DNA of 64,000 nt from an uncultured Pseudomonadales bacterium (GTDB taxonomy: Bacteria; Patescibacteriota; Microgenomatia; UBA1400; PJMF01), in NCBI GenBank assembly GCA_964393205.1, contig CAYMSV010000001.1, positions 173,764 to 237,763 of the forward strand, written 5' to 3'. The translations under genes and the position numbers were made by a program. The notes below the pieces were generated by a model, which was not told the DNA's origin, did not search any database, and saw nothing but the letters and a program-made list of their open reading frames with translations. Positions 9,907 to 60,959 of this stretch are shown here, piece by piece. Within the stretch, counting starts at the first letter, position 1, and each line of letters begins with the position of its first letter.

Positions 9907-11316
9907 TTAAGACTGTTTGATACTCTCCAATAATTGATTGAATTCGGTCATAATTTCTTTTACAGCAATTTTTTGAGGATTGTCGGCTGGACCAATAATT
10001 AATTCTGGAAAATCTACGTCTGATTTGTCAAAAGGCTTTTTAAAAGTAAATGGTAGAAACATTAATTTTTTGGGATCGAAAGGTTTTTGTACTAAAAAGG
10101 AAATAAATTCACGAGTAACAGCCTTAACCCAAGTCACTCCTTTTCTTTCTTTTGCTAAGTCTTGTTCTGCAAGATGACGATGCCCTCCCCAAATCTGAAT
10201 ATTGTTTTCAATAAATTTTCTACTTTTTTCCTCATCCCAGGTAAATTGTTCTTGAGTATATAGCACTAGTTTGTCTTGAATTAATTCTGGCCAATGTGTA
10301 TAAACTACCGTTTTAACGCCCTGTAAACAGTCATCAAGCATAATTTTAATTAATTCTTTTTGTTTTTGTTCTTCTAGTTGCTGACAACTAATAATCTCTG
10401 AATAAACGGGTGAATTTTTAGTGATTTCTAATTCATTTAAAGCAATTAATAGGTCTTCTTTAGTGCCACCTCTTTCAACTAAATTATCTAAAAAGACCGC
10501 TTGACTAGTTGTTTTACCAGACTCATCAGTCAGATAGCGTCCTACTTGAGATCCGAAGGTTAGTTTTTCCAAATACCATTTTTGTAATGGATGGATAGCT
10601 AGGTGTGGGTTCTCTAAAATATTTCTGTAAGTGTTCCAAGCTTGAACAATATTGTCCCAAGAATAGCCTTTTTTTAATGCAGAAACCAGTTCTTCGAATG
10701 TTTGATTGTCGAGAGTTGAATAAATTTTTGCCATTTGGTCATAATCTTTTTTTTCAACATTCGTGAAGTCATAGTGATTACCAACTAAATTTAATACTGT
10801 GAGAGGATTTTGTTCGTTTGGATTGTTGAGTTGTAGTTTGTTTTGTAAATTTTTTAAAGTTTTTTCTAAAGTACTAAATGCACTAAAAGTATTGGACGCC
10901 TCTGTGCTTATAATTGTGTCTCCCAGGGAAATAAAGAGACCTCCATCGGAAATATTTTTTTCAGCTTCTTCAATAGCTCGGCGAAAACTAAATCTAGCGA
11001 TCGCATCGATCAAGCGAATTCGATTACGAACCGGTGTAATATTAGCAAGCAATCTTCTTTTATAAGAAGCTAAGCCATCAACTTTTTCTAGAGATGATTG
11101 TGATGCCGTAATATGGGGATCAGCAAGAGCAGCAATATTGGGCATTTTTTTAACACGAATTGATAGTTCTTTTTGAAAAGGAGAAATTAAAAACTCTGGG
11201 CGATGTTCAATCGGATTGTTTTCTTGATCTGTAGTTGTTAGTAAACAATCTTTAAAAGACTTATTTGATTTTTCTTCCGTTGCTATTGCTTGTTCTGATT
11301 TATTGATTGTATTCAT
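9907..11316 (-). CDS. calcineurin-like metallophosphoesterase with large insertions
   Basis: Ordered motifs DPH, GD(TII), GNH(YD) and GHRH. Confidence 0.6.
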   Translation of the reverse strand: MNTINKSEQAIATEEKSNKSFKDCLLTTTDQENNPIEHRPEFLISPFQKELSIRVKKMPNIAALADPHITASQSSLEKVDGLASYKRRLLANITPVRNRIRLIDAIARFSFRRAIEEAEKNISDGGLFISLGDTIISTEASNTFSAFSTLEKTLKNLQNKLQLNNPNEQNPLTVLNLVGNHYDFTNVEKKDYDQMAKIYSTLDNQTFEELVSALKKGYSWDNIVQAWNTYRNILENPHLAIHPLQKWYLEKLTFGSQVGRYLTDESGKTTSQAVFLDNLVERGGTKEDLLIALNELEITKNSPVYSEIISCQQLEEQKQKELIKIMLDDCLQGVKTVVYTHWPELIQDKLVLYTQEQFTWDEEKSRKFIENNIQIWGGHRHLAEQDLAKERKGVTWVKAVTREFISFLVQKPFDPKKLMFLPFTFKKPFDKSDVDFPELIIGPADNPQKIAVKEIMTEFNQLLESIKQS

Positions 11317-11361
11317 TTTTTATAGAAAAATATTTGTCTAAATTAAATATTTAAAATTATG

Positions 11362-11432
11362 ATGCCCGACTAGGATTCGAACCTAGATTGAAAGCTTCAA
11401 AGGCTTCTGTCCTGCCATTAGACGATCGGGCA
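11362..11432 (-). tRNA. tRNA-Gln(UUG)
   Basis: Cloverleaf with U1-A72, anticodon loop CUUUGAA and a GTTCGAAT T-loop. Confidence 0.85.
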
Positions 11433-11462
11433 ATGTTAATAAGATGTTATTATAATTCTTTA

Positions 11463-12278
11463 CTAATCTTTTTTCAAAACAAAATATTGATTCAACTGAG
11501 CAGATTTGCCATCAGCAAAAAATGTTTTAATGATTTTGTAGCCACTTTTTTGCGAAAGAGATAAGCTTTCTTTTTCATTAATAAAATGACAATAGCGAAT
11601 AGCAGGTTTTATTAATTCTTTTTCTTTGCTTTTTCGCCAATCTAAGAAAAAATCATTTTTTTCTAATTTTTTTAATAGTGTTTTTAATCGCAATTTTTGA
11701 AAAATATTTAATTTTTGATTTTTTTTAATTTTTTGCCAGTTTAAAATATTTTTTTGAAAGCGCTGATCGTTAGCAAACTGCCAGTTACTAATTATTAATA
11801 AACCATCTTGTGTCAGTAAATTTTTTAAATTTTTTAAAAATTTTAGACGCAATTCATGACTTGGTAGATGATGAGTTAAACCAAAGGCCACAATTAGATC
11901 AAATTTTTCATCAACTGGCCAAATTATTTTTTTATTGTCTAAATAATTATCAATTAAATCGAAGTTAAATAATTTACTAGTAATATTTTCTTTATTGAGT
12001 GTTTCTTGAGCAATATCAATTAGTTTCTGAGAATTATCTAAGGCAAAGTAGTCAAAATCAAATTTTTCTTTTTGTAAAAATTGAGCAAAACGAGCGTTGC
12101 CGCAAGCTATATCTAAAACCTTAATTTTTTTAGATTTTTTTAGATTTTTTTCAAGAAACTTTGGAATTTTCTGCCAACCTTGCCACGAGTATTGTCGACT
12201 ATCACTAAAATCATCAGCCACAATTTGATAAAAGTTTTTATTAAGCTGATTTAATTGTTTAATGGTTTTTTTTTGCAC
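11463..12278 (-). CDS. Trm9/ALKBH8-type SAM-dependent methyltransferase
   Basis: FSDSRQYSW...FL (Trm9 FSxTRxxxW), LDIACGNARF (Trm9 motif I, LDVGCGNGKY), HH and LIISNWQ (Trm9 LIYxWAxEQ). Confidence 0.7.
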   Translation of the reverse strand: MQKKTIKQLNQLNKNFYQIVADDFSDSRQYSWQGWQKIPKFLEKNLKKSKKIKVLDIACGNARFAQFLQKEKFDFDYFALDNSQKLIDIAQETLNKENITSKLFNFDLIDNYLDNKKIIWPVDEKFDLIVAFGLTHHLPSHELRLKFLKNLKNLLTQDGLLIISNWQFANDQRFQKNILNWQKIKKNQKLNIFQKLRLKTLLKKLEKNDFFLDWRKSKEKELIKPAIRYCHFINEKESLSLSQKSGYKIIKTFFADGKSAQLNQYFVLKKD

Positions 12279-12329
12279 GCTGCCCTATTTTAGCAAATAA
12301 AAGCTAATTAAAGGTATAATAAAGCTTCG

Positions 12330-14138
12330 ATGAAAAAACAGTTAGAACAAAAAAGTTTATTTCAACTTGTTGAGCTTTTGCGAAACAATTTAGACTTACC
12401 GTGGCCCAAGTTACTATCTTTGATTAAAAAACACCCCAAAGAAGACGGTGGTTTTTTTAGTAAAACTGAAATTATTGAGGCTCATCGTCAACTATATCCA
12501 GATGAACCCTATGCTGCTTTAGTAAAAAAACTAAGATTAAAGCCAACTCGCAGCGCTTCTGGAGTGGCACCAGTAACCATTTTAACTAAACCCTATCCTT
12601 GTCCTGGAAAATGTTTATTTTGTCCAAATGATTTGCGCATGCCCAAAAGTTATTTAGCAGAAGAGCCCGGTGCACAACGAGCAGAAAAAAATTACTTTGA
12701 TCCTTACTTACAAGTCATGAGTCGTTTAAATGCTTTGATGGATATGGGTCATAGGATAGACAAAGTGGAATTGATTGTTTTGGGTGGCACCTGGACTAAT
12801 TATCCAGAAAATTACCGACTCTGGTTTATTCAACAGTCCTTCAAGGCACTTAATGATTTTGGCAAGCGTGATCAGTCAGAGAAAATTCGCCAAAGATATA
12901 AACAAGCCTTAGCAAAGTTAGATCAACCATATATGAGTAGTGAAGCTAAAGAAAACTTAGCTATTTTAGAAGGATTGAATTTAGATGAGCAAGCACTTAG
13001 ACAAAATTATAATCAACTAATTACACAACATTATTTATTGCCAGAAAAAAAAGCTGGAATTGATCGTTGGCAACAGGCTAGTTTTAGCCAATTATCACGA
13101 GCACATAAGAAAAATGAAACAGCACTGGCTCGTTGCATAGGTTTGGTACTGGAAACTAGACCAGACGAAATTAATCAGGATAGCGCGCTTGAACTGCGCA
13201 AGCTTGGTGCTACCAAAATTCAGTTGGGGGTGCAAACACTGGATGACAAAATTTTAAAACTTAACTATCGAGGTCATGGTGTAGCAGAAACCATACAAGC
13301 TTTTAAAATATTGCGTGAACTAGGTTTTAAAATTCATGTGCATTGGATGGCTAATTTATATGGTAGCAGCGTTTCTAAAGACCAAGCAGATTTTGCCAAG
13401 CTTTTTGCAGATGATAGTTTTAGGCCTGATGAGTTAAAAATTTACCCTTGCTCCTTGATTGCTAGTGCACCACTAATGCAGTATTACCAGGAAGGTAAAT
13501 GGCAACCCTATTCTTATGAAGAACTGCTACAAGTTACCACTTTTACTCTAAAAAATACACCTGCTTATTGTCGTATTACTCGGATGTTGAGAGATATTCC
13601 GGCTCAAGATATTGTAAGCGGTAATATTAAAAGTAATTTTCGCCAAATTGCTGAAGCTCAAGTTAAAAAAGAAGGAATTAAAATTAAGGAAATACGTTCT
13701 AGAGAAATACGACGTCAAGAATTTGATCCAGAAAAAATCAAGTTGAGTAAGATTAAGTACCAAACTCAATTAAGTGTTGAATATTTTTTACAATTCACTG
13801 TACCTGTTAAAGGTGGTGAAGAAAAAATTCTCGGATTTTTGCGCCTTAGTTTGCCTAAGAAAAAAAATCATTGGTGGAAAGAACTCAGCAACAGCGCCAT
13901 GATTCGTGAGATTCACGTTTATGGTCAAGCTTTAGCTCTTGGAGCTGAGGCCAAAGGTCGGGCTCAACACTTAGGACTAGGCACCCGCTTGATTGAAGAA
14001 GCTAAAACAATTAGTCAGCGATCTGGATTTGAAAAATTAGCGGTGATTTCGGCTATTGGAACAAAAGAATATTATCGAAGTCGAGGTTTCAGCGACGGCG
14101 ATTTATATCAATTTTTATCTTTATTAGAAAAAAATTAA
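12330..14138 (+). CDS. elp3: Elp3-family radical-SAM/GNAT protein (elongator protein 3 homolog, tRNA U34 carboxymethyl synthase-like)
   Basis: KPTRSASGVAPVTILTKPYPCPGKCLFCPN radical-SAM N-terminal region collinear with Elp3; C-terminal GNAT region (VYGQALALG...ISAIGTKEYYRSRGF). Confidence 0.8.
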   Translation: MKKQLEQKSLFQLVELLRNNLDLPWPKLLSLIKKHPKEDGGFFSKTEIIEAHRQLYPDEPYAALVKKLRLKPTRSASGVAPVTILTKPYPCPGKCLFCPNDLRMPKSYLAEEPGAQRAEKNYFDPYLQVMSRLNALMDMGHRIDKVELIVLGGTWTNYPENYRLWFIQQSFKALNDFGKRDQSEKIRQRYKQALAKLDQPYMSSEAKENLAILEGLNLDEQALRQNYNQLITQHYLLPEKKAGIDRWQQASFSQLSRAHKKNETALARCIGLVLETRPDEINQDSALELRKLGATKIQLGVQTLDDKILKLNYRGHGVAETIQAFKILRELGFKIHVHWMANLYGSSVSKDQADFAKLFADDSFRPDELKIYPCSLIASAPLMQYYQEGKWQPYSYEELLQVTTFTLKNTPAYCRITRMLRDIPAQDIVSGNIKSNFRQIAEAQVKKEGIKIKEIRSREIRRQEFDPEKIKLSKIKYQTQLSVEYFLQFTVPVKGGEEKILGFLRLSLPKKKNHWWKELSNSAMIREIHVYGQALALGAEAKGRAQHLGLGTRLIEEAKTISQRSGFEKLAVISAIGTKEYYRSRGFSDGDLYQFLSLLEKN

Positions 14139-22319: not shown

Positions 22320-22665
22320 TTTTTAAAGTGAACATGGCTCGTAAGCCGGATTCTGTTTAGAAAGTAATGATTTATCTATGCACAACTTTATGACCATCTT
22401 TCCAAAAGGAAATATAGGGAGTAGGTCCATTAAGGTCAAAATCGTTGCTCGCAGCGGGGAGGATTGCCAAACAATCGTTGCCGATTATCTATCCAATAGC
22501 TTGATCGTTTCAACTGGCGCTACCCAGCTCGTCTCTGTTGCTCTAACTAGCTAGCTTTAACACTAGTCACAGCTTTCACTGTACACCCTCTACTCGGCTG
22601 TCCGGACTTTCCTGTCAAAAATGTTAATTGATGACCCATTACTCGGCCATGTTCCCTTGTATTAT
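22320..22665 (-). ncRNA. rnpB: RNase P RNA (bacterial)
   Basis: On the minus strand: AGGAAAGTCCGGAC (P4 5' strand) and ACAGAATCCGGCTTA (P4 3' strand); P1 pairing GGGAACATGGC/GCCATGTTCAC; no ORF; a GC-rich island within AT-rich DNA. Confidence 0.85.
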
Positions 22666-30190: not shown

Positions 30191-31237
30191 CTAAATCAAA
30201 TCTCCCTTGGGTTTATATTTAACCCAGGTCTCAAAGATTGTTCTAAGTACAATAATTGTTGGTACGGCCAGCAGTGCTCCTGCTATTCCAAAAATAGTAC
30301 CACCGATTAAAATACCCAAAATTACGGTTAGGCCGCTAACATTAATATTTCTTTGCATGACTCTGGGAACAATCAGATTATTTTCTAATTGCTGAATGAT
30401 GACGTAAAGTACTAAAGTGACAATTGCTCCTGGCCAGCCCAGGGTTGCTAGGGCTATCAAAATGGCGGGAATGGCTGAAACTGTGGGGCCTATGTTGGGG
30501 ATAACTTCCATAATCCCAGCTAGAAGCGCCAATGGCAAAGAATAAGGCAGGCCTATTAGGGTTGTGCCAATAAAAACCAAGGCTCCTACAATAATCATTG
30601 TTATGAATTCTCCCCTAATCCAGTTGCCTAGTTGGATATTTATTTCACGAATAGCTTCTTCAAATTGTTTAATTTTTTTATCATCTCTTGTTAGCCAGGA
30701 AAAATCACGAACTACCTGCCCCTTTTCTATAGACATGTAGAGGGAAATTACTAAAGTCATAATAATCGTCAGAAATCCAGAAAAAGTAGAACTAATTACA
30801 TTAATTACGGCAGATAGCGAACCACCCAACTGCTCACTGATTCGACCAATATCTTGTAAATTAAGCTCAAAAGTATCAAGCATGATGTTAATTTCTGGAG
30901 GGAGTTTAAGAGTGCCAAGCATAATTGAGAATTCACTAACTAGGGGAGGGAGAATTAGGGCTAAAAACAATCCAAGAATAATGGAAAATATAAAGTAGAC
31001 AAAAATACTGCTAGTAGACCTTTTCCAACTAAATTTATCTTGAATTTTGCAAATTGGTTTGTTAAGACCAACGCTTATGATGTAAGCGATAAAAGTAATA
31101 AACAGAATGTTTTTAATTTTTTGAATAAACCAAATACCAACTAAGAAAAGAAAAATAAAAACAACAATTGAGGGGGAAATTTTGACAAGTAATTCGTCTT
31201 TTTTAGGCTTTGACATAGTGCTTATACTATAGCACAA
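30191..31237 (-). CDS. AI-2E family transporter (PerM/UPF0118)
   Basis: 8 TM helices; conserved C-terminal region GxxGALLAVP. Confidence 0.75.
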   Translation of the reverse strand: MCYSISTMSKPKKDELLVKISPSIVVFIFLFLVGIWFIQKIKNILFITFIAYIISVGLNKPICKIQDKFSWKRSTSSIFVYFIFSIILGLFLALILPPLVSEFSIMLGTLKLPPEINIMLDTFELNLQDIGRISEQLGGSLSAVINVISSTFSGFLTIIMTLVISLYMSIEKGQVVRDFSWLTRDDKKIKQFEEAIREINIQLGNWIRGEFITMIIVGALVFIGTTLIGLPYSLPLALLAGIMEVIPNIGPTVSAIPAILIALATLGWPGAIVTLVLYVIIQQLENNLIVPRVMQRNINVSGLTVILGILIGGTIFGIAGALLAVPTIIVLRTIFETWVKYKPKGDLI

Positions 31238-32198
31238 GAGCTAGGGTTTTAGTCAAAAGTTTCTGATCATTTGCTTCTAAAAAATTTAAATTTTCAGTTT
31301 TTTTCCACCAAGTATCTTGACGTCTGGCGTATTGAATTTCGCTACGTTGCCATTGTAGAAGAGCCTGGTGCTTGTTTAGTTCGTGGTTGAGATAGTCTGC
31401 CACTTGTGTAAAGCCAATGCTACTGGCAGCTGGTAATTCTGAACTAAGTTTAAATTGGTCAAGACAGGCTTTGACTTCGTGAACAGCATGTTTAAAACGT
31501 TCTGCTACACGTCTTTTAATTTTTTCCTCCCGCTCCTTTTGGGTCAGGGTTAAATGTATGGAACAAATATTTTCTTCTTTGCTTTTTTTAATTGTTTTCT
31601 TTGTATCAGTGAATTGAGCAATTTCAATTGCCCTAATTAGTCTTCGAGGGTTTTGTACATCTGATTGATTCATTGTTTCAAATTTTTCTGGATCAGTTTG
31701 TTTAAGTGTTTCTTGAAGAAATTGAAGCGATTTTTTGTCTAATTTTTGGCGCAAGGTTGGATTGGGTGGAATAGAAAGAGTGGCTGCTGGTTGGATAATT
31801 TGGCGATGATAAAAACCAGTGCCACCGACTAATATTAAAACTTCTTTATCAGTCAACTGCTTTTTAAGGCTTAGGTATAATTTTTTGAAATGGGCGGGTG
31901 ACCAATCTTGCCAAATAGGAATAATACTAACTCCATGAAGAGTAATGGGTAGTTGTGAATGAGCAAAGTGACGATAAGGTTTCTTTTTGATTAGCTGCCA
32001 GCCATGAGGCAGATCTGCAGCGGTTAAAATTTCTAAGCCTTGATAAACCTGGCGAGAATCAACAGAAAGAAGGTAAACTCGTTGAACTTGATTGTTTTCA
32101 ATTAAAGATTCTGCTAAATCTAAGGCAAGTTTGCTTTTACCGGTAGCTGTGGCTCCGGTAATTGAAATTATTTGATTTTGAATCTTTGTTTTTAGCAT
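31227..32198 (-). CDS. miaA: tRNA dimethylallyltransferase
   Basis: ISITGATATGKS P-loop; MiaA length and organisation. Confidence 0.85.
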   Translation of the reverse strand: MLKTKIQNQIISITGATATGKSKLALDLAESLIENNQVQRVYLLSVDSRQVYQGLEILTAADLPHGWQLIKKKPYRHFAHSQLPITLHGVSIIPIWQDWSPAHFKKLYLSLKKQLTDKEVLILVGGTGFYHRQIIQPAATLSIPPNPTLRQKLDKKSLQFLQETLKQTDPEKFETMNQSDVQNPRRLIRAIEIAQFTDTKKTIKKSKEENICSIHLTLTQKEREEKIKRRVAERFKHAVHEVKACLDQFKLSSELPAASSIGFTQVADYLNHELNKHQALLQWQRSEIQYARRQDTWWKKTENLNFLEANDQKLLTKTLALVL

Positions 32199-32199
32199 T

Positions 32200-33351
32200 T
32201 TAAACTACCTTGGGTCTTTGCTTTAGATTGTTTTTGTTAATTAATTTGTCTAAAATTTGCCAGCGTTTTTTCTTAATTGAATGAGGAATGTCGTCTTGAT
32301 AAAGTCTGCTGGCGCTAGTGCCGGGACGAGGCGAATAAATATTAACAAAGGCTAGTTGCCAATTGGCTTTTTTGGCTAAATCCAGGGTGTCTTCAAATTC
32401 TTGCTCTGTTTCTCCAGGGAAGCCAACTATTAGGTCTGTTCCCAGGGTAATATCTGGTGCAGCTTGACGTAATTTTTTTAATAAATTTAGATAGTCTTCA
32501 CGAGTGTAACCGCGATTCATTCGATGTAAAACACTATTGCTGCCGGATTGGACGGGCAAGTGAATGAATCGATCCAGTTTTTGATTATTAGCAATTTCTT
32601 TAATTAACTCATCATGAAAATCCCAAGGATTGCTACTCATAAAACGAATGACCTTGATTTCATCTAAGGCGGAAATCGTTTGCAACAACTCAACAAAAGG
32701 AGGTGTGCCCTTTGCAGGAAAATATTGAGATTGATTGCTTGGTAGATTCTCTCTTTCCATTTCAGAGCGCAAGATTTTTTTGCGATTACTAACACCAATT
32801 TTTTCTAAACCCCAGGAATTAACATTTTGACCAATTAGAGTAATTTCACTGTAACCTTGTTTGGCCAGCTCTGTAGCCTCTTCCATAATATCAATAAAAG
32901 AACGAGACTTTTCTCTGCCTCTGGCATAAGGGACAATACAGTAGGTACAAAAGGAATTACAACCAACAGAAACCGGTATAAAAGCATGTTTTTTGTCTTT
33001 GCGTTTGGCTTTTTTTAAAAAAGCCATTTGATTGCTGGGAATAATTTTGTCGATCATGGGCAAAATTTTTTTAAGATGGTCTTGACCATGATGAATCATG
33101 CAGCCAGAAAAAATTATTTCTGGCTTGCTTTGTTTATTGTCTTGATAATATTTAGCGACTTTAAGTAAAAAAGCTCTAACCCTCTGCTCTGCTCTTTCTC
33201 TAATACTACAGGTCACTACGGCTAATTTTTGACAATCTTGCCAAGAGTTACTTTCACTTAAGCCTTGTTCTTCAAAAAGTGCCGCCATTCTTTCAGCATC
33301 ACTTTTATTAGCCTGACATCCATAAGTTTTGATAAAGTATTTTTTTGACAT
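32200..33351 (-). CDS. miaB: MiaB-family radical-SAM methylthiotransferase (short, apparently without a TRAM domain)
   Basis: YGCQAN N-terminal MTTase domain; CxxxCxxC (CNSFCTYC) radical-SAM motif; adjacent to miaA. Confidence 0.75.
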   Translation of the reverse strand: MSKKYFIKTYGCQANKSDAERMAALFEEQGLSESNSWQDCQKLAVVTCSIRERAEQRVRAFLLKVAKYYQDNKQSKPEIIFSGCMIHHGQDHLKKILPMIDKIIPSNQMAFLKKAKRKDKKHAFIPVSVGCNSFCTYCIVPYARGREKSRSFIDIMEEATELAKQGYSEITLIGQNVNSWGLEKIGVSNRKKILRSEMERENLPSNQSQYFPAKGTPPFVELLQTISALDEIKVIRFMSSNPWDFHDELIKEIANNQKLDRFIHLPVQSGSNSVLHRMNRGYTREDYLNLLKKLRQAAPDITLGTDLIVGFPGETEQEFEDTLDLAKKANWQLAFVNIYSPRPGTSASRLYQDDIPHSIKKKRWQILDKLINKNNLKQRPKVV

Positions 33352-33619: not shown

Positions 33620-34921
33620 TTGATGCTAATTAAATCAATTGAGGCTCAAGAAGTTTTGGATTCACGAGGAAACCCCACGGTTGGAGTAACTTTGAAGCTT
33701 GAAGATGGAACTGAAGTTTTTTCAGCAGTTCCCTCAGGTGCTTCAACTGGTGCTTATGAAGCACTGGAGCTTCGCGATGAGGACAATACTCGCTATTTGG
33801 GTAAGGGAGTATTAAAAGCTGTAGCCAATGTTAATAATATTATTGCTCCCGAACTCATTGGTCAAGATGTTAGAGAACAAGAAAAACTTGATCAAATGAT
33901 GCTCGATTTAGACGGTACTCAGGGTAAACAAAATTTAGGTGCCAATGCTATTTTGGCAGTATCGATGGCTTGTGTAAAAGCAGCGGCCATAGTTAATAAG
34001 ATGCCTCTTTATGCTTATATAGCTAAACTCTTTGGTAATAGCACTGAAGAATTTGTGATGCCTATTCCAATGTCCAATGTACTTAATGGCGGTAAACATG
34101 CTATCGGTAGTGCTGACATGCAAGAATTTATGATTTTTCCCCTAGCTGCTCCCAATGTAGTAGAAGCAATTCGCTGGAATGCAGAAATTTTCCATCATTT
34201 AGGAAAAATTATTCAGAAAAAAGGTTGGCAAAAAACTGTTGGAGATGAAGGCGGTTATGCTCCTCCACTAGGTACCAATGAGGCTCCTTTACAATTGATT
34301 ATGCAAGCCATTGAAATGGCTGGTTATAAAGCTGGAGAAGATGTTTTCATTGCTCTTGATCCAGCAGCTAGTGAGTTTTATGAGGGTGAGGGTGAAACTG
34401 GTCTTTATGATCTAAAAACCGAGGGTAAAAAACTGACTAGTAGCGAGATGGTTAAAAAATACCAACAATGGGTTGAAGAATATCCAATTGTTTCTATAGA
34501 AGATGGTTTGGCCGAAGATGATTGGAGTGGTTTTAGTGAGTTGACTGAAGTTTTGGGTAAAAAAATTCAAATTATGGGAGATGATCTCTTAGTAACTAAC
34601 CCAGAAAGAATTCAGAAAGCTATCGATAAAAAGGCTGCTAACTCAGTGTTAATTAAACTTAATCAAATCGGCAGCGTCAGTGAGACGATTCAAGCTATTA
34701 AATTAGCTCAAAGCGCTGGTTGGACCTGTGTGGTTTCTCATCGCAGTGGCGAAACAGGAGATACCTTTATTGCCGATTTTGTAGTTGGTACAGGTACCGG
34801 ACAGATTAAAACTGGTTCAATGTGTCGCAGTGAGCGAGTGGCCAAATACAATCGTTTAATGATAATTGAGCGAGAACTAGGAGATAAGGCAAAAATTGCT
34901 AAGTTTCCTTTTAAACAATAG
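33620..34921 (+). CDS. eno: enolase (canonical, all catalytic residues present)
   Basis: SGASTG, GGKHA, VGDEGG, ALDPAASE, IEDG, GDDL, IKLNQIG, SHRSGET and KTG motifs are all present. Confidence 0.95.
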   Translation: MMLIKSIEAQEVLDSRGNPTVGVTLKLEDGTEVFSAVPSGASTGAYEALELRDEDNTRYLGKGVLKAVANVNNIIAPELIGQDVREQEKLDQMMLDLDGTQGKQNLGANAILAVSMACVKAAAIVNKMPLYAYIAKLFGNSTEEFVMPIPMSNVLNGGKHAIGSADMQEFMIFPLAAPNVVEAIRWNAEIFHHLGKIIQKKGWQKTVGDEGGYAPPLGTNEAPLQLIMQAIEMAGYKAGEDVFIALDPAASEFYEGEGETGLYDLKTEGKKLTSSEMVKKYQQWVEEYPIVSIEDGLAEDDWSGFSELTEVLGKKIQIMGDDLLVTNPERIQKAIDKKAANSVLIKLNQIGSVSETIQAIKLAQSAGWTCVVSHRSGETGDTFIADFVVGTGTGQIKTGSMCRSERVAKYNRLMIIERELGDKAKIAKFPFKQ

Positions 34922-44024: not shown

Positions 44025-45290
44025 TTATTTTTCGGCTTTTAGTTCTTGGTCAATTTCCATTAGACGATTATATTTTGCTACCCTCTCACCTCTATTGAGT
44101 GGGCCAAATTTTACATAATTAGCTCCGACTCCGACTGCCAAATCTACAATTAGAGTTTCTAGTGTCTCTCCTGTGCTATGGCTAATAACTAAATCTAATT
44201 GATGGTCTTTAATGGCTTTGATGCTTTCCATCAATTCACTGATGGTGCCAATTTGTTTTGGCTTGAGGACAACGGCATTAGCCATTTCATCTTCTTTAAT
44301 TTTATTAATTTCTGTTACCTTAGCCCCTACATGACGATAAGCAGCAATTGAAGTTGTTTTACCTAGATTACGTTGTAATAACTGCCAACTTTTTTTGTCA
44401 CTTTCAATAAAAGGATCTTCTAAATAAATAATTTTATATTTTTCTCTTATTTGTTCGTAAAATTGTAATAACTCTTTTTCAGTAAATCCTTGATTACTAT
44501 CTCTAATACGATATTTACTTGCCTCAAACAATCTGTAAGCAGAAGCCTGCAGTCCGAAGAAAACATCTTGAGCAAAGTTGTAACTAGTGGTACGAATTGC
44601 CTCAATTAATAACTCAAAGGCATCTAAATTACGATATAAGTTTGGTGTGAAGCCACCAGTTAGACCAGTAGCATGGATGGCACCCTTATTAATCAGTAAA
44701 GCTTCTAGTTTTTGCTGAATGACTGCAATCATTTCTAAAGATTTTTCTAAGGATAAGTGGCTAGCGGGAATAAGTGAAAATTCTTGAAAATCGAGATTTT
44801 TGCCACCATGTTCTCCTCCGTCAAAAGCAGTGACAATGCAGTTTGGTAAATCAATTTCTTGAATAAGATTATATTTTTTTTGAATATATTCGTAGAGTGG
44901 TAGTCCAACACTAATCGCACCAGCCTTCAAAACGGCCTGAGAGACCGCTAAAAGAGCGTTAGCACCTAAGCGACTTTTATTGGCAGTGCCGTCTAAACCA
45001 ATTAAAATTTTATCTAATTCTCCTTGAGCAGTTACTTCTTTTTCTATAACTTGAGGAGCAATAATTTGATTAATATGATTAATTGCCTTGTTTACTCCTA
45101 AGCCGAGAAACCTTTCATCTTTATCTCTTAAATATAGGGCATCACTGGGATTGTTATCAATTGGAGTGGGTATTGTAGTAATGGTAGAAAAACCATTATC
45201 TAGCCACAATAATAATTGAACAGTGGGTAGTCCCCGACTATCAAAGATCTCCTTAGCTTGAATAGCATAGATTTTGGCCATAGTTTCCAA
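44025..45290 (-). CDS. enolase paralog with degenerate active site (pseudo-enolase)
   Basis: Collinear with enolase from N-terminus (IFDSRGLPTV) to C-terminus (RGERVAKYNRLMEIDQEL), but SGASTG becomes TPIDNN, GDEGG becomes GLTGG, LDPA becomes LQAS, GDDL becomes AYRH and HRS becomes HST. Confidence 0.8.
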   Translation of the reverse strand: METMAKIYAIQAKEIFDSRGLPTVQLLLWLDNGFSTITTIPTPIDNNPSDALYLRDKDERFLGLGVNKAINHINQIIAPQVIEKEVTAQGELDKILIGLDGTANKSRLGANALLAVSQAVLKAGAISVGLPLYEYIQKKYNLIQEIDLPNCIVTAFDGGEHGGKNLDFQEFSLIPASHLSLEKSLEMIAVIQQKLEALLINKGAIHATGLTGGFTPNLYRNLDAFELLIEAIRTTSYNFAQDVFFGLQASAYRLFEASKYRIRDSNQGFTEKELLQFYEQIREKYKIIYLEDPFIESDKKSWQLLQRNLGKTTSIAAYRHVGAKVTEINKIKEDEMANAVVLKPKQIGTISELMESIKAIKDHQLDLVISHSTGETLETLIVDLAVGVGANYVKFGPLNRGERVAKYNRLMEIDQELKAEK

Positions 45291-59270: not shown

Positions 59271-60959
59271 ATGAAAAGAAAAAATATAGAACAATCTCAA
59301 CATTGGTTAGACCAACTTGTCTTGGAGATATTAGAGTGGCAAAAAAAAGAAAATATTAAAAAATTACATGTTGATGACATGAAAACTCCATCGGGCAGAG
59401 TTCACACAGGGGCTCTTAGAGGCGTTTTACTCCATGATTTTGTGGAAAAAGCTCTTCAGGAGTATTTAGTAAAAAATAAAAAGACTACTGAAGCTCAGTC
59501 TGTGGTAAGTACCTATGTTTTCAATGATGTAGATCCTATGGACGGTTTACCTCAGTATTTAGAGGAAAAAATCTATTTAGAGCATATGGGTAAACCTCTA
59601 TATACCATTCCAGCTCCCAAACTAGATCAATCTGGAATTAATCTAGAAAAAATTAGTGTTGCAGAAAGAAAAGCTTTAGAAGAGGCTAAAAATTTTGCAG
59701 AATTTTATGCAATAGATTTTATTCAAGCTTTTCGTAAATTAGGTTGTGATCAAGAAATCATTTGGAGTCATGATTTATATCAAAGTGGTCAAATGGATGA
59801 AGTAATTCGTTTGTCGCTGGATAATGTTGAATTATTTAGAAAAATTTATAAAAAGGTAGCTGATTATAATTTGCCAGAAAATTGGTACCCCTTTCAAGTA
59901 ATCTGCCCTGTTTGCGGTAAGATTGGCACTACTCTAGTGACTGATTGGGATGGTCAAGAAGTAACTTTTGAGTGTCAAAAAAACTTAGTGACTTGGGCAG
60001 AAGGTTGTGGTCACAGTGCTAAAATCAGTCCTTTTGGAGGTAATGGTAAGTTACTTTGGAAAGTAGATTGGCCAGCACATTGGAAAACAATGGGGGTTAC
60101 TGTTGAGGGGGCTGGCAAAGATCATACTAGTGCTGGTGGTTCTAGAGATATGGCTAATGCTATTTGTCGACAGGTTTTTAAAACCCAAAAACCCTTTGAT
60201 ATTCCCTATGAGTGGATTTTAATTCGTGGCAGCAAGATGAGTTCAAGCAAAGGCGTGGGCACTTCTGCTCGTGAATTTACTGCTCTATTCCCAGATACTG
60301 TGGGGCGTTTCTTATTTATTAATAAACATTATGGTCAAGTGATTGATTTTGATCCAAGTACGATGGCTATTCCAGATTTGTTTGATGATTATGATCAAGC
60401 AGCTAAAATTTATTGGGGTCTAGAAGATGGAGATCAGCGTCTAGGAAGGGCCTTTGCCTTATCACAAATAGGAAAAATTCCTGAACCTCATTTTTTAGCT
60501 CGGTTTCGTGATTTAGCCATGTGGGTTCAATATCCTGAAAAAGATGTTTTTGAGGAAGCTGGAAAAATTAAAGGTGGTGAGTTGAGTGATTTGGAAAAAC
60601 AGATTATCGAGGAACGCTTAAACTACGTTGAGTTGTGGTTAGAAAAATACGCTCCAGAAGAATTCCAATGGCGAGCTAAAAAAGAAATGCCTGCTCGTGC
60701 TAAAGAACTAAGCAGTGAGCAAAGAAGTTTTCTACAAGAGTTAAATAAATTAATTGAAGAGCGAAACGATTGGCAAGCGGCAGATTTACAACAGGCAATT
60801 TTTGAGCTAGCTAAAGATAGTGTTGGCGCAAAACAGGGTTTTAGTGCCATTTACCTAGCTTTTTTAGGTAAAAAATCTGGTCCCAGAGCAGCTTGGTTTT
60901 TGTTAGACTTAGATCCAGAACTGCGTCTGCAAAGGATTAAAGAACTCGGCAATGAATAA
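59271..60959 (+). CDS. lysK: class I lysyl-tRNA synthetase (archaeal-type LysK)
   Basis: KMSSSKG (KMSKS motif); the HIGH-like region SGRVHTGALRG; a CPVCG...C zinc knuckle. No class II LysRS lies in the window. Confidence 0.8.
   Translation: MKRKNIEQSQHWLDQLVLEILEWQKKENIKKLHVDDMKTPSGRVHTGALRGVLLHDFVEKALQEYLVKNKKTTEAQSVVSTYVFNDVDPMDGLPQYLEEKIYLEHMGKPLYTIPAPKLDQSGINLEKISVAERKALEEAKNFAEFYAIDFIQAFRKLGCDQEIIWSHDLYQSGQMDEVIRLSLDNVELFRKIYKKVADYNLPENWYPFQVICPVCGKIGTTLVTDWDGQEVTFECQKNLVTWAEGCGHSAKISPFGGNGKLLWKVDWPAHWKTMGVTVEGAGKDHTSAGGSRDMANAICRQVFKTQKPFDIPYEWILIRGSKMSSSKGVGTSAREFTALFPDTVGRFLFINKHYGQVIDFDPSTMAIPDLFDDYDQAAKIYWGLEDGDQRLGRAFALSQIGKIPEPHFLARFRDLAMWVQYPEKDVFEEAGKIKGGELSDLEKQIIEERLNYVELWLEKYAPEEFQWRAKKEMPARAKELSSEQRSFLQELNKLIEERNDWQAADLQQAIFELAKDSVGAKQGFSAIYLAFLGKKSGPRAAWFLLDLDPELRLQRIKELGNE

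Follow-up and report, generated by a model that had tools for sequence, protein, structure and literature searches.

A divergent gene pair of Elp3 and a Trm9-like methyltransferase conserved in several bacterial phyla, a candidate pathway for mcm5U-type wobble uridine modification

In the 64,000-nucleotide stretch of contig CAYMSV010000001.1 analysed here (the whole of it is called the window below), the gene for Elp3, a radical S-adenosylmethionine (SAM) and acetyltransferase (KAT) enzyme, stands back to back with the gene for a Trm9-like class I SAM-dependent methyltransferase. This divergent pair is a conserved bacterial module found in several phyla and not a peculiarity of the window genome. 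We consider it likely that the two proteins form a stand-alone, two-step pathway of the archaeal and eukaryotic type for wobble uridine modification in a bacterium, in which U34 would be converted to 5-carboxymethyluridine (cm5U) and then to 5-methoxycarbonylmethyluridine (mcm5U), and mcm5 wobble modification probably exists in bacteria too. A first-pass annotation of this DNA had read the locus as a candidate cm5U-to-mcm5U module, and this core reading is supported by the intact cysteine triad of Elp3, by the Trm9 residues of the methyltransferase and by the co-conservation of the two genes. The Elp3 open reading frame (ORF) occupies positions 12330-14138 on the forward strand and encodes 602 amino acids (aa). 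The methyltransferase ORF occupies 11463-12278 on the reverse strand and encodes 271 aa, predicted to be a tRNA cm5U34 carboxyl methyltransferase; its start codon is GTG, an assignment backed by the collinear N-termini of the homologues. The divergent spacer between them (12279-12329) measures 51 bp, in agreement with the approximately 50 bp noted before, and all the features described in the first-pass annotation were located where it had placed them.

The longer ORF is, as judged from its sequence, a genuine Elp3. It scored 470.5 bits against the NCBIfam model TIGR01211 (ELP3), for which the curated cutoff is 350, and covered positions 35-516 of the 522 in the profile. Pfam Radical_SAM and Radical_SAM_C were matched as well; Pfam Acetyltransf_1 gave no score, and the KAT domain was seen by motif and alignment. 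The best matches in the PDB were the Elp3 of M. infernus (MinElp3, 6IAZ, E = 6e-92) and that of Dehalococcoides mccartyi (DmcElp3, 5L7J, E = 3e-89). The score is above the TIGR01211 cutoff, the radical-SAM and KAT regions both align, and the collinearity with Elp3 that had been proposed is confirmed. The description of the protein as a divergent Elp3 homolog was overstated, because the curated cutoff is passed and the spacing of the cysteines is common among bacteria.

The motif of the radical-SAM [4Fe-4S] centre is C91-P-G-K-C95-L-F-C98 (12600-12623, forward strand), which reads as previously given (CPGKCLFCP), and the cysteine triad C91/C95/C98 is complete and invariant. CPGxCx(F/Y)C was found in 53 of the 53 bacterial homologues extracted, and the spacing equals that of DmcElp3. 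The arrangement Cx3Cx2C is therefore the bacterial norm, and the idea that it distinguishes the window Elp3 was rejected. In the KAT domain, the acetyl-CoA motif Q546-H-L-G-L-G551 (13965-13982, forward strand) corresponds to QHxGxG of the bacterial homologues, where it is followed by a conserved GTRxYYxxxGF, read as GTKEYYRSRGF in the window protein, and, as far as residue 589, the region can be aligned with the KAT domains of both MinElp3 and DmcElp3. The residues K77, K193, E386 and Y441 highlighted in DmcElp3 (PMC6367351) correspond to K145, K334, E527 and Y581/582 of the window protein. From family membership and the in vitro activity of the archaeal homologue, we infer that the window Elp3 forms cm5U34.

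Two regions set the window protein apart from some of the solved Elp3 structures. The N-terminal extension (aa 1-70; 12330-12539, forward strand) precedes the alignment with DmcElp3, which begins at window residue 71. This extension is conserved coding sequence, as tblastn matches in other phyla start at query residues 2-31, and it is mildly basic (13 K+R versus 9 D+E); in the Elp3 of archaea and eukaryotes, the corresponding region is reported to be important for binding tRNA (PMC6367351). The other region is a subfamily insertion of about 76 aa in the radical-SAM domain (aa 178-253; 12861-13088, forward strand) with a conserved Y-N-x-x-V/I core. No equivalent exists in the solved Elp3s, DmcElp3 included, and the alignments break in two at this place. 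The insertion is 59-89 aa long in Patescibacteria, some Anaerolineae, Myxococcota and Acidobacteriota, and merely 8-14 aa in Caldilineae and in many Anaerolineales copies.

Of the solved structures, MinElp3 (6IAZ, 6IA8 and 6IAD), which makes cm5U in vitro, is the best match: the radical-SAM and KAT domains are collinear and both proteins possess an N-terminal extension, whereas the cluster motif of MinElp3 is Cx4Cx2C (CPHGKCIFC) and the aa 178-253 insertion is missing from it. DmcElp3 (5L7J, 6IA6), the one bacterial Elp3 that has been studied, resembles the window protein as a stand-alone bacterial Elp3 with the radical-SAM and KAT domains, the motif CPGKCIYC in place of CPGKCLFC, and the equivalents of K77, K193, E386 and Y441 kept. 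It is shorter, however, with 459 aa, and has neither the extension of about 70 aa nor the 76-aa insertion.

Pfam, NCBIfam and fold searches with the methyltransferase returned only generic class I methyltransferase matches. The top NCBIfam match was UbiG, at 36 bits versus a cutoff of 103, every NCBIfam match lay far under its cutoff, and the top fold matches of the AlphaFold2 model (predicted local distance difference test score of 91.9) were generic or small-molecule methyltransferases. Trm9 emerged when a profile of the family, built from 37 members, was run against 177,635 PDB sequences. The top match was Trm9 of Y. lipolytica (YlTrm9, 5CM2_Z) with E = 3.1e-15 and 59.5 bits, the second match having 49.6 bits, and the alignment reached the C-terminal R-Y-x-H segment. 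The single methyltransferase sequence likewise matched 5CM2_Z first in the PDB. The sequence used for the yeast protein (ScTrm9) was validated by its numbering, which fits every residue named in PMC4678810, and by its match to 5CM2_Z with E = 4e-71. Alignment of the family with ScTrm9 by hhalign gave a probability of 99.0% (E = 3.9e-18) over 212 columns spanning Trm9 residues 12-278, at an identity to Trm9 of about 20-23%. The library matches are thus generic, yet Trm9-specific residues are present on alignment and Trm9 is the best PDB profile match. That the protein is Trm9-like is supported by profile similarity, active-site residues and gene linkage together.

The active site was compared residue by residue, and conservation was counted over 81 family members. 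In ScTrm9, the substitutions R29A, D72A, H116A, W145A, W168A, R241A, Y243A and N271A abolish or cripple the enzyme, and Y18 and H115 were placed in the cm5U pocket (PMC4678810). Mutagenesis or docking thus links all ten residues to catalysis or to the binding of cm5U, and nine of them are kept in the window methyltransferase. Y17, D81, H136, H137, W166 and R228, the counterparts of Y18, D72, H115, H116, W145 and R241, are each conserved in 81 of the 81 members, and R28 (R29 in yeast) in 80. W214, matched to W168 through the YlTrm9 alignment, is found in 73 of the 81 and is otherwise replaced by Phe; N263 (N271 in yeast) is conserved in 73 as well. The sole exception is Y243 of the R-Y-Y-H motif, by which the window protein departs from Trm9: its place is taken by C230, and in the family by Cys (68 members), Val (9), Ala (3) or Ser (1), but never by Tyr. 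ScTrm9 Y243A keeps approximately 10% of its activity, and RYY is retained in the distant members P0095 and P0097 and in the partner methyltransferases of the Dehalococcoidia type.

The SAM-binding motif I, LDIACGN (D56, G60), and D81 are present too, as a generic trait of class I methyltransferases. Among the motifs that the first-pass annotation had listed for Trm9 and ALKBH8, LDIACGN, HH (136-137) and LIISNWQ were found as described, and only the N-terminal one differs, reading FSDSRQYSW with Ser, not Thr, before Arg. More broadly, the window protein is a class I SAM methyltransferase like Trm9 and ALKBH8 (ScTrm9, the YlTrm9-Trm112 complex 5CM2, and HvoTrm9 of H. volcanii), and it shares with them Y-x6-F-S-x-(T/S)-R-x3-W, the HH dyad, the W after beta5, D-x4-W, R-Y-x-H and the C-terminal N. 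The family also has extra residues after beta3 and a helical insertion of its own at about aa 170-205. It is located between W166 and D209, a stretch without an insertion in yeast; conversely, the window methyltransferase lacks the long insertion that the yeast protein carries after W168.

The linkage between the two genes was examined in a profile scan in which each GTDB species was represented by one genome and which yielded 332 confirmed relatives of the methyltransferase, and the best 80 loci were analysed. By record title, these belong to Patescibacteria (Pacebacteria, Woesebacteria, Saccharibacteria and Dojkabacteria), Chloroflexota (Anaerolineae, Caldilineae and Thermoflexales), Myxococcota or "Deltaproteobacteria", Acidobacteriota, and one Spirochaetaceae metagenome-assembled genome (MAG). 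Searching with the window Elp3 by tblastn, we found Elp3 within 10 kb of the methyltransferase in 58 of the 80 loci, and in 50 of the 65 that have at least 2.5 kb of upstream sequence. In 46 loci the layout was that of the window: Elp3 is the immediate upstream neighbour on the opposite strand, and the ends of the BLAST matches are under 600 nt apart. When the ORFs of the 80 loci and the window were clustered, Elp3 and the methyltransferase were the only common genes; the remaining large clusters were shadow ORFs inside these two, and RecQ and a MazG-like gene were common only to close relatives. The pair is thus co-conserved far beyond chance. The pairing itself had been noticed before and is real, but it is not special to this bacterium, being a common bacterial layout that includes D. 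mccartyi. In the 15 loci without a nearby Elp3, the methyltransferase keeps every catalytic residue and is therefore the same orthologue; a paralogue was considered for these and rejected.

A reverse test was anchored on a Dehalococcoides Elp3, P0100, whose identity to the query, a segment of 5L7J, is 98%. A divergent Trm9-like methyltransferase stands beside Elp3 in three of the three informative loci of the Dehalococcoidia type; the fourth Elp3-anchored contig starts too near Elp3 and falls outside this count. One of the three is D. mccartyi CP019867.1, where a divergent methyltransferase of 224 aa lies 43 bp upstream of Elp3. This protein was aligned with the family at 98.9% by hhalign, matched ScTrm9 by BLASTP with E = 5e-12, and carries the motifs FHHL, VWN, VPW, RYY and RN. 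DmcElp3 therefore has a Trm9-like partner as the window Elp3 does, although the partner belongs to another clade (224 aa with RYY, versus 271 aa with RYCH).

In the proposed pathway, the radical-SAM [4Fe-4S] centre of Elp3 (C91/C95/C98) and its KAT domain, using acetyl-CoA, would put a carboxymethyl group on C5 of U34 to give cm5U34; this step is proposed because of the Elp3 family membership and the conserved catalytic residues. The methyltransferase would then bind SAM through motif I and D81 and hold the carboxylate of cm5U between R28, H137 and R228, while W166 and N263 would recognise the uracil ring. Methylation of the carboxylate would produce the methyl ester mcm5U34, a step proposed because of the conserved Trm9 active site and the gene linkage. 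Likely substrates would be the U34-containing tRNAs Gln(UUG), Glu(UUC), Lys(UUU) and Gly(UCC), all of which are encoded in the window. The pair is then a bacterial representative of a known pathway with variant traits, namely the replacement of Y243 by Cys, no Trm112 detected nearby and the Elp3 insertion. The genes for Elp3 and Trm9 are also clustered in Sulfolobus, and Trm9-Trm112 of H. volcanii was shown to form mcm5U in this archaeon. The usual bacterial enzymes MnmE-MnmG (with MnmC), which produce 5-carboxymethylaminomethyluridine (cmnm5U) and 5-methylaminomethyluridine (mnm5U) at position 34, act on the same C5 of U34 and serve the same role in decoding NNA and NNG codons, but they are unrelated enzymes with different cofactors (GTP, flavin adenine dinucleotide, methylene-tetrahydrofolate and glycine) and a different side chain.

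Among the alternatives, the one with most to recommend it, although we regard it as unlikely, is that the methyltransferase partners Elp3 without making mcm5U. Methylation could fall on a different atom of the Elp3 product or at some other position of the anticodon loop, or the enzyme could supply a route to another end product, for which further enzymes would be required. The systematic replacement of the Y243 equivalent by C, V, A or S in the window clade, and the family-specific insertion and extra residues after beta3, speak for it. The chemistry of cm5U is also plastic, as H. volcanii and yeast lacking Trm9 divert cm5U to other products. On the other hand, the equivalents of R29, H116, R241, N271 and W145, which contact the carboxylate and the uracil, are all kept, and the Dehalococcoidia clade retains the Tyr. 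There is much less room for the view that the enzyme is unrelated and methylates small molecules or proteins, as a methyltransferase of the UbiE/UbiG kind would, and that its adjacency to Elp3 is meaningless. This view could draw on database records named "Menaquinone biosynthesis methyltransferase UbiE", on the UbiG match and on the top fold matches, but the NCBIfam scores are all far under their cutoffs, the divergent adjacency holds across at least four phyla while all other neighbours change, and residues specific to Trm9 that lie beyond the SAM-binding core are invariant. JGI, for its part, names some of the orthologues TRM9. Hardly credible at all is that the pair was acquired horizontally from archaea and survives as an inactive relic, or that Elp3 acts on a target other than tRNA. 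DmcElp3 was very weakly active in vitro, and direct evidence of xcm5U in bacteria is lacking; nevertheless, both ORFs are intact, and the window Elp3, unlike DmcElp3, has the N-terminal extension.

A further question concerns the tRNA-Gln(UUG) gene (11361-11432, reverse strand; called by ARAGORN and Rfam), which follows the stop codon of the methyltransferase gene after 30 nt on the same strand. Yeast tRNA-Gln(UUG) bears the 2-thiolated derivative mcm5s2U (PMC6367351). The gene could belong integrally to the module and be transcribed with it, as a substrate gene dedicated to the modification enzymes beside it. The same tRNA adjoins the methyltransferase in the loci L007 and L010, and in five more Patescibacteria loci (L014-L016, L022 and L028) it is found 2-2.5 kb downstream. 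In these five, however, an inserted ORF of 521 aa stands between the two, and among the 80 loci the tRNA was not seen beside the pair in those of Chloroflexota, Myxococcota, Acidobacteriota, Saccharibacteria or Dojkabacteria. Moreover, the tRNA gene has a promoter-like site of its own, TTGAAA-17-TATAAT (11477-11449, reverse strand), which matches the sigma-70 consensus at 11 of 12 positions, lies 17 nt upstream of the tRNA and overlaps the last codons and the stop codon of the methyltransferase gene. With 15 tRNA genes in the 64 kb, a chance neighbour is not unlikely either. The first-pass annotation was right that this tRNA is the immediate downstream neighbour, but its inclusion in the module was rejected because the adjacency is restricted to close Patescibacteria relatives and the near-consensus promoter-like site is its own; we hold its membership to be quite improbable. 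The adjacency represents lineage synteny, and the tRNA is a plausible substrate of the two-step pathway.

Trm112, the obligate activator subunit known from eukaryotic and archaeal Trm9, was looked for around the pair. Clustering of the ORFs of the 80 loci and the window gave no conserved small neighbour gene in any locus, and neither Trm112 nor a thiolase as a third conserved gene. Searches by phmmer and jackhmmer with YcaR and ScTrm112 as queries gave no match in the window or in any of the loci, which is a weak negative. The small genes of the window carry no Pfam match on record either. This sets the pair apart from Trm9-Trm112, as far as the weak search allows. Within the 64-kb window, mnmE, mnmG and mnmA were not found, whereas miaA, miaB and several aminoacyl-tRNA synthetases are encoded.

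In the published literature, genes resembling the Trm112-dependent methyltransferases of eukaryotes, Trm9-like ones included, were described in 2017 as undetectable in bacteria (PMC5372719). Bacteria were assigned only cmnm5U, mnm5U and 5-aminomethyluridine (nm5U), and the methylation of cm5U to mcm5U by Trm9-Trm112 was placed "in archaea and in eukaryotes" (PMC7694415). Bacterial Elp3 was in 2020 considered limited to Dehalococcoides, with no evidence of xcm5U there (PMC7663514), and DmcElp3 was called "a rare example of bacterial Elp3s" (PMC6367351); by 2026 "numerous bacteria" with Elp3 were mentioned and a partner was not named (PMC13315578). Our literature search, whose coverage stopped short of the original 2016 DmcElp3 paper, found neither a bacterial Trm9 nor an Elp3/Trm9 gene pair described before. 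A Trm9 for the step after Elp3 is a natural expectation wherever Elp3 is present, and automatic annotation already hints at a bacterial Trm9, but the Elongator and Trm9 literature consulted still describes it as missing from bacteria.

The conserved pair predicts mcm5U-type wobble uridines in bacteria and names for them an enzyme of the second step, from cm5U to mcm5U. It also puts right labels such as "UbiE" that databases attach to these methyltransferases. The family may represent a Trm9 that is active without Trm112. For biochemical work, the full-length bacterial Elp3s, which include the N-terminal extension, could serve as better models than DmcElp3 with its weak activity. A broader proposal, which we regard as possible but doubtful, is that the full xcm5U34 pathway, consisting of Elp3 and a Trm112-independent Trm9, operates in the candidate phyla radiation (CPR)/Patescibacteria, in Chloroflexota including Dehalococcoides, in Myxococcota and in Acidobacteriota, and replaces MnmE/MnmG in at least the reduced CPR genomes. 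If this were true, mcm5U-type modification would occur in each of life's three domains and the Elp3-Trm9 pair would be an ancient two-gene module.

The short common spacer of the window pair may point to co-regulation of the two genes. A perfect TATAAT is located in it at 12316-12321, 8 nt ahead of the Elp3 ATG, and the 51-bp spacer with this hexamer is compatible with back-to-back promoters. A TATAAT so near the ATG would imply that the Elp3 mRNA is leaderless or has a very short leader.

Several other observations were made around the pair. The Dehalococcoidia-type loci share, 1.5-3 kb upstream of the pair, conserved genes for QueH, an epoxyqueuosine reductase involved in wobble-base modification, and for a GNAT acetyltransferase (L089, 3140-4406; L090, 2767-3859; L092, 2134-3280). 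In a genome labelled Bacteroidota (L091, 154-6527), two genes of the SAM cycle, for SAM synthetase and for S-adenosylhomocysteine hydrolase, are found 2.5-4 kb from Elp3 and on the strand opposite to it; the contig edge is 153 nt upstream of this Elp3. Four MAGs titled "uncultured Pseudomonadales" (L008, L015, L051 and L053) encode proteins 38-54% identical to those of the window. Of these, L008 and L015 show Patescibacteria-like synteny, with tRNA-Leu/Pro and tRNA-Gln(UUG) around the pair, and the Pseudomonadales labels of the four look wrong.

The window itself is AT-rich, with a GC fraction of about 0.28-0.39 per 2-kb window, and metagenomic contigs identical to it exist, the longest of them being JGI Ga0334883_1000005 with 349 kb. 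Its closest named relatives bear the labels "Candidatus Pacebacteria" or "Patescibacteria group bacterium", which places the organism in the CPR/Patescibacteria. Directly downstream of tRNA-Gln lies an ORF of 469 aa (9907-11316, reverse strand), which had no Pfam or NCBIfam match and is a called gene in all the identical contigs. Elsewhere in the window, the class A RNase P RNA was found at 22326-22654 (reverse strand, 112 bits), and miaA and miaB form a tandem at 31227-33351 (reverse strand), responsible for the N6-isopentenyladenosine and 2-methylthio-N6-isopentenyladenosine modification at position 37 (i6A/ms2i6A37). The lysyl-tRNA synthetase encoded at 59271-60959 (forward strand) is of the class I archaeal type (Pfam tRNA-synt_1f). 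Two enolase genes, at 33620-34921 (forward strand) and 44025-45290 (reverse strand), lie approximately 9 kb apart in this small genome.

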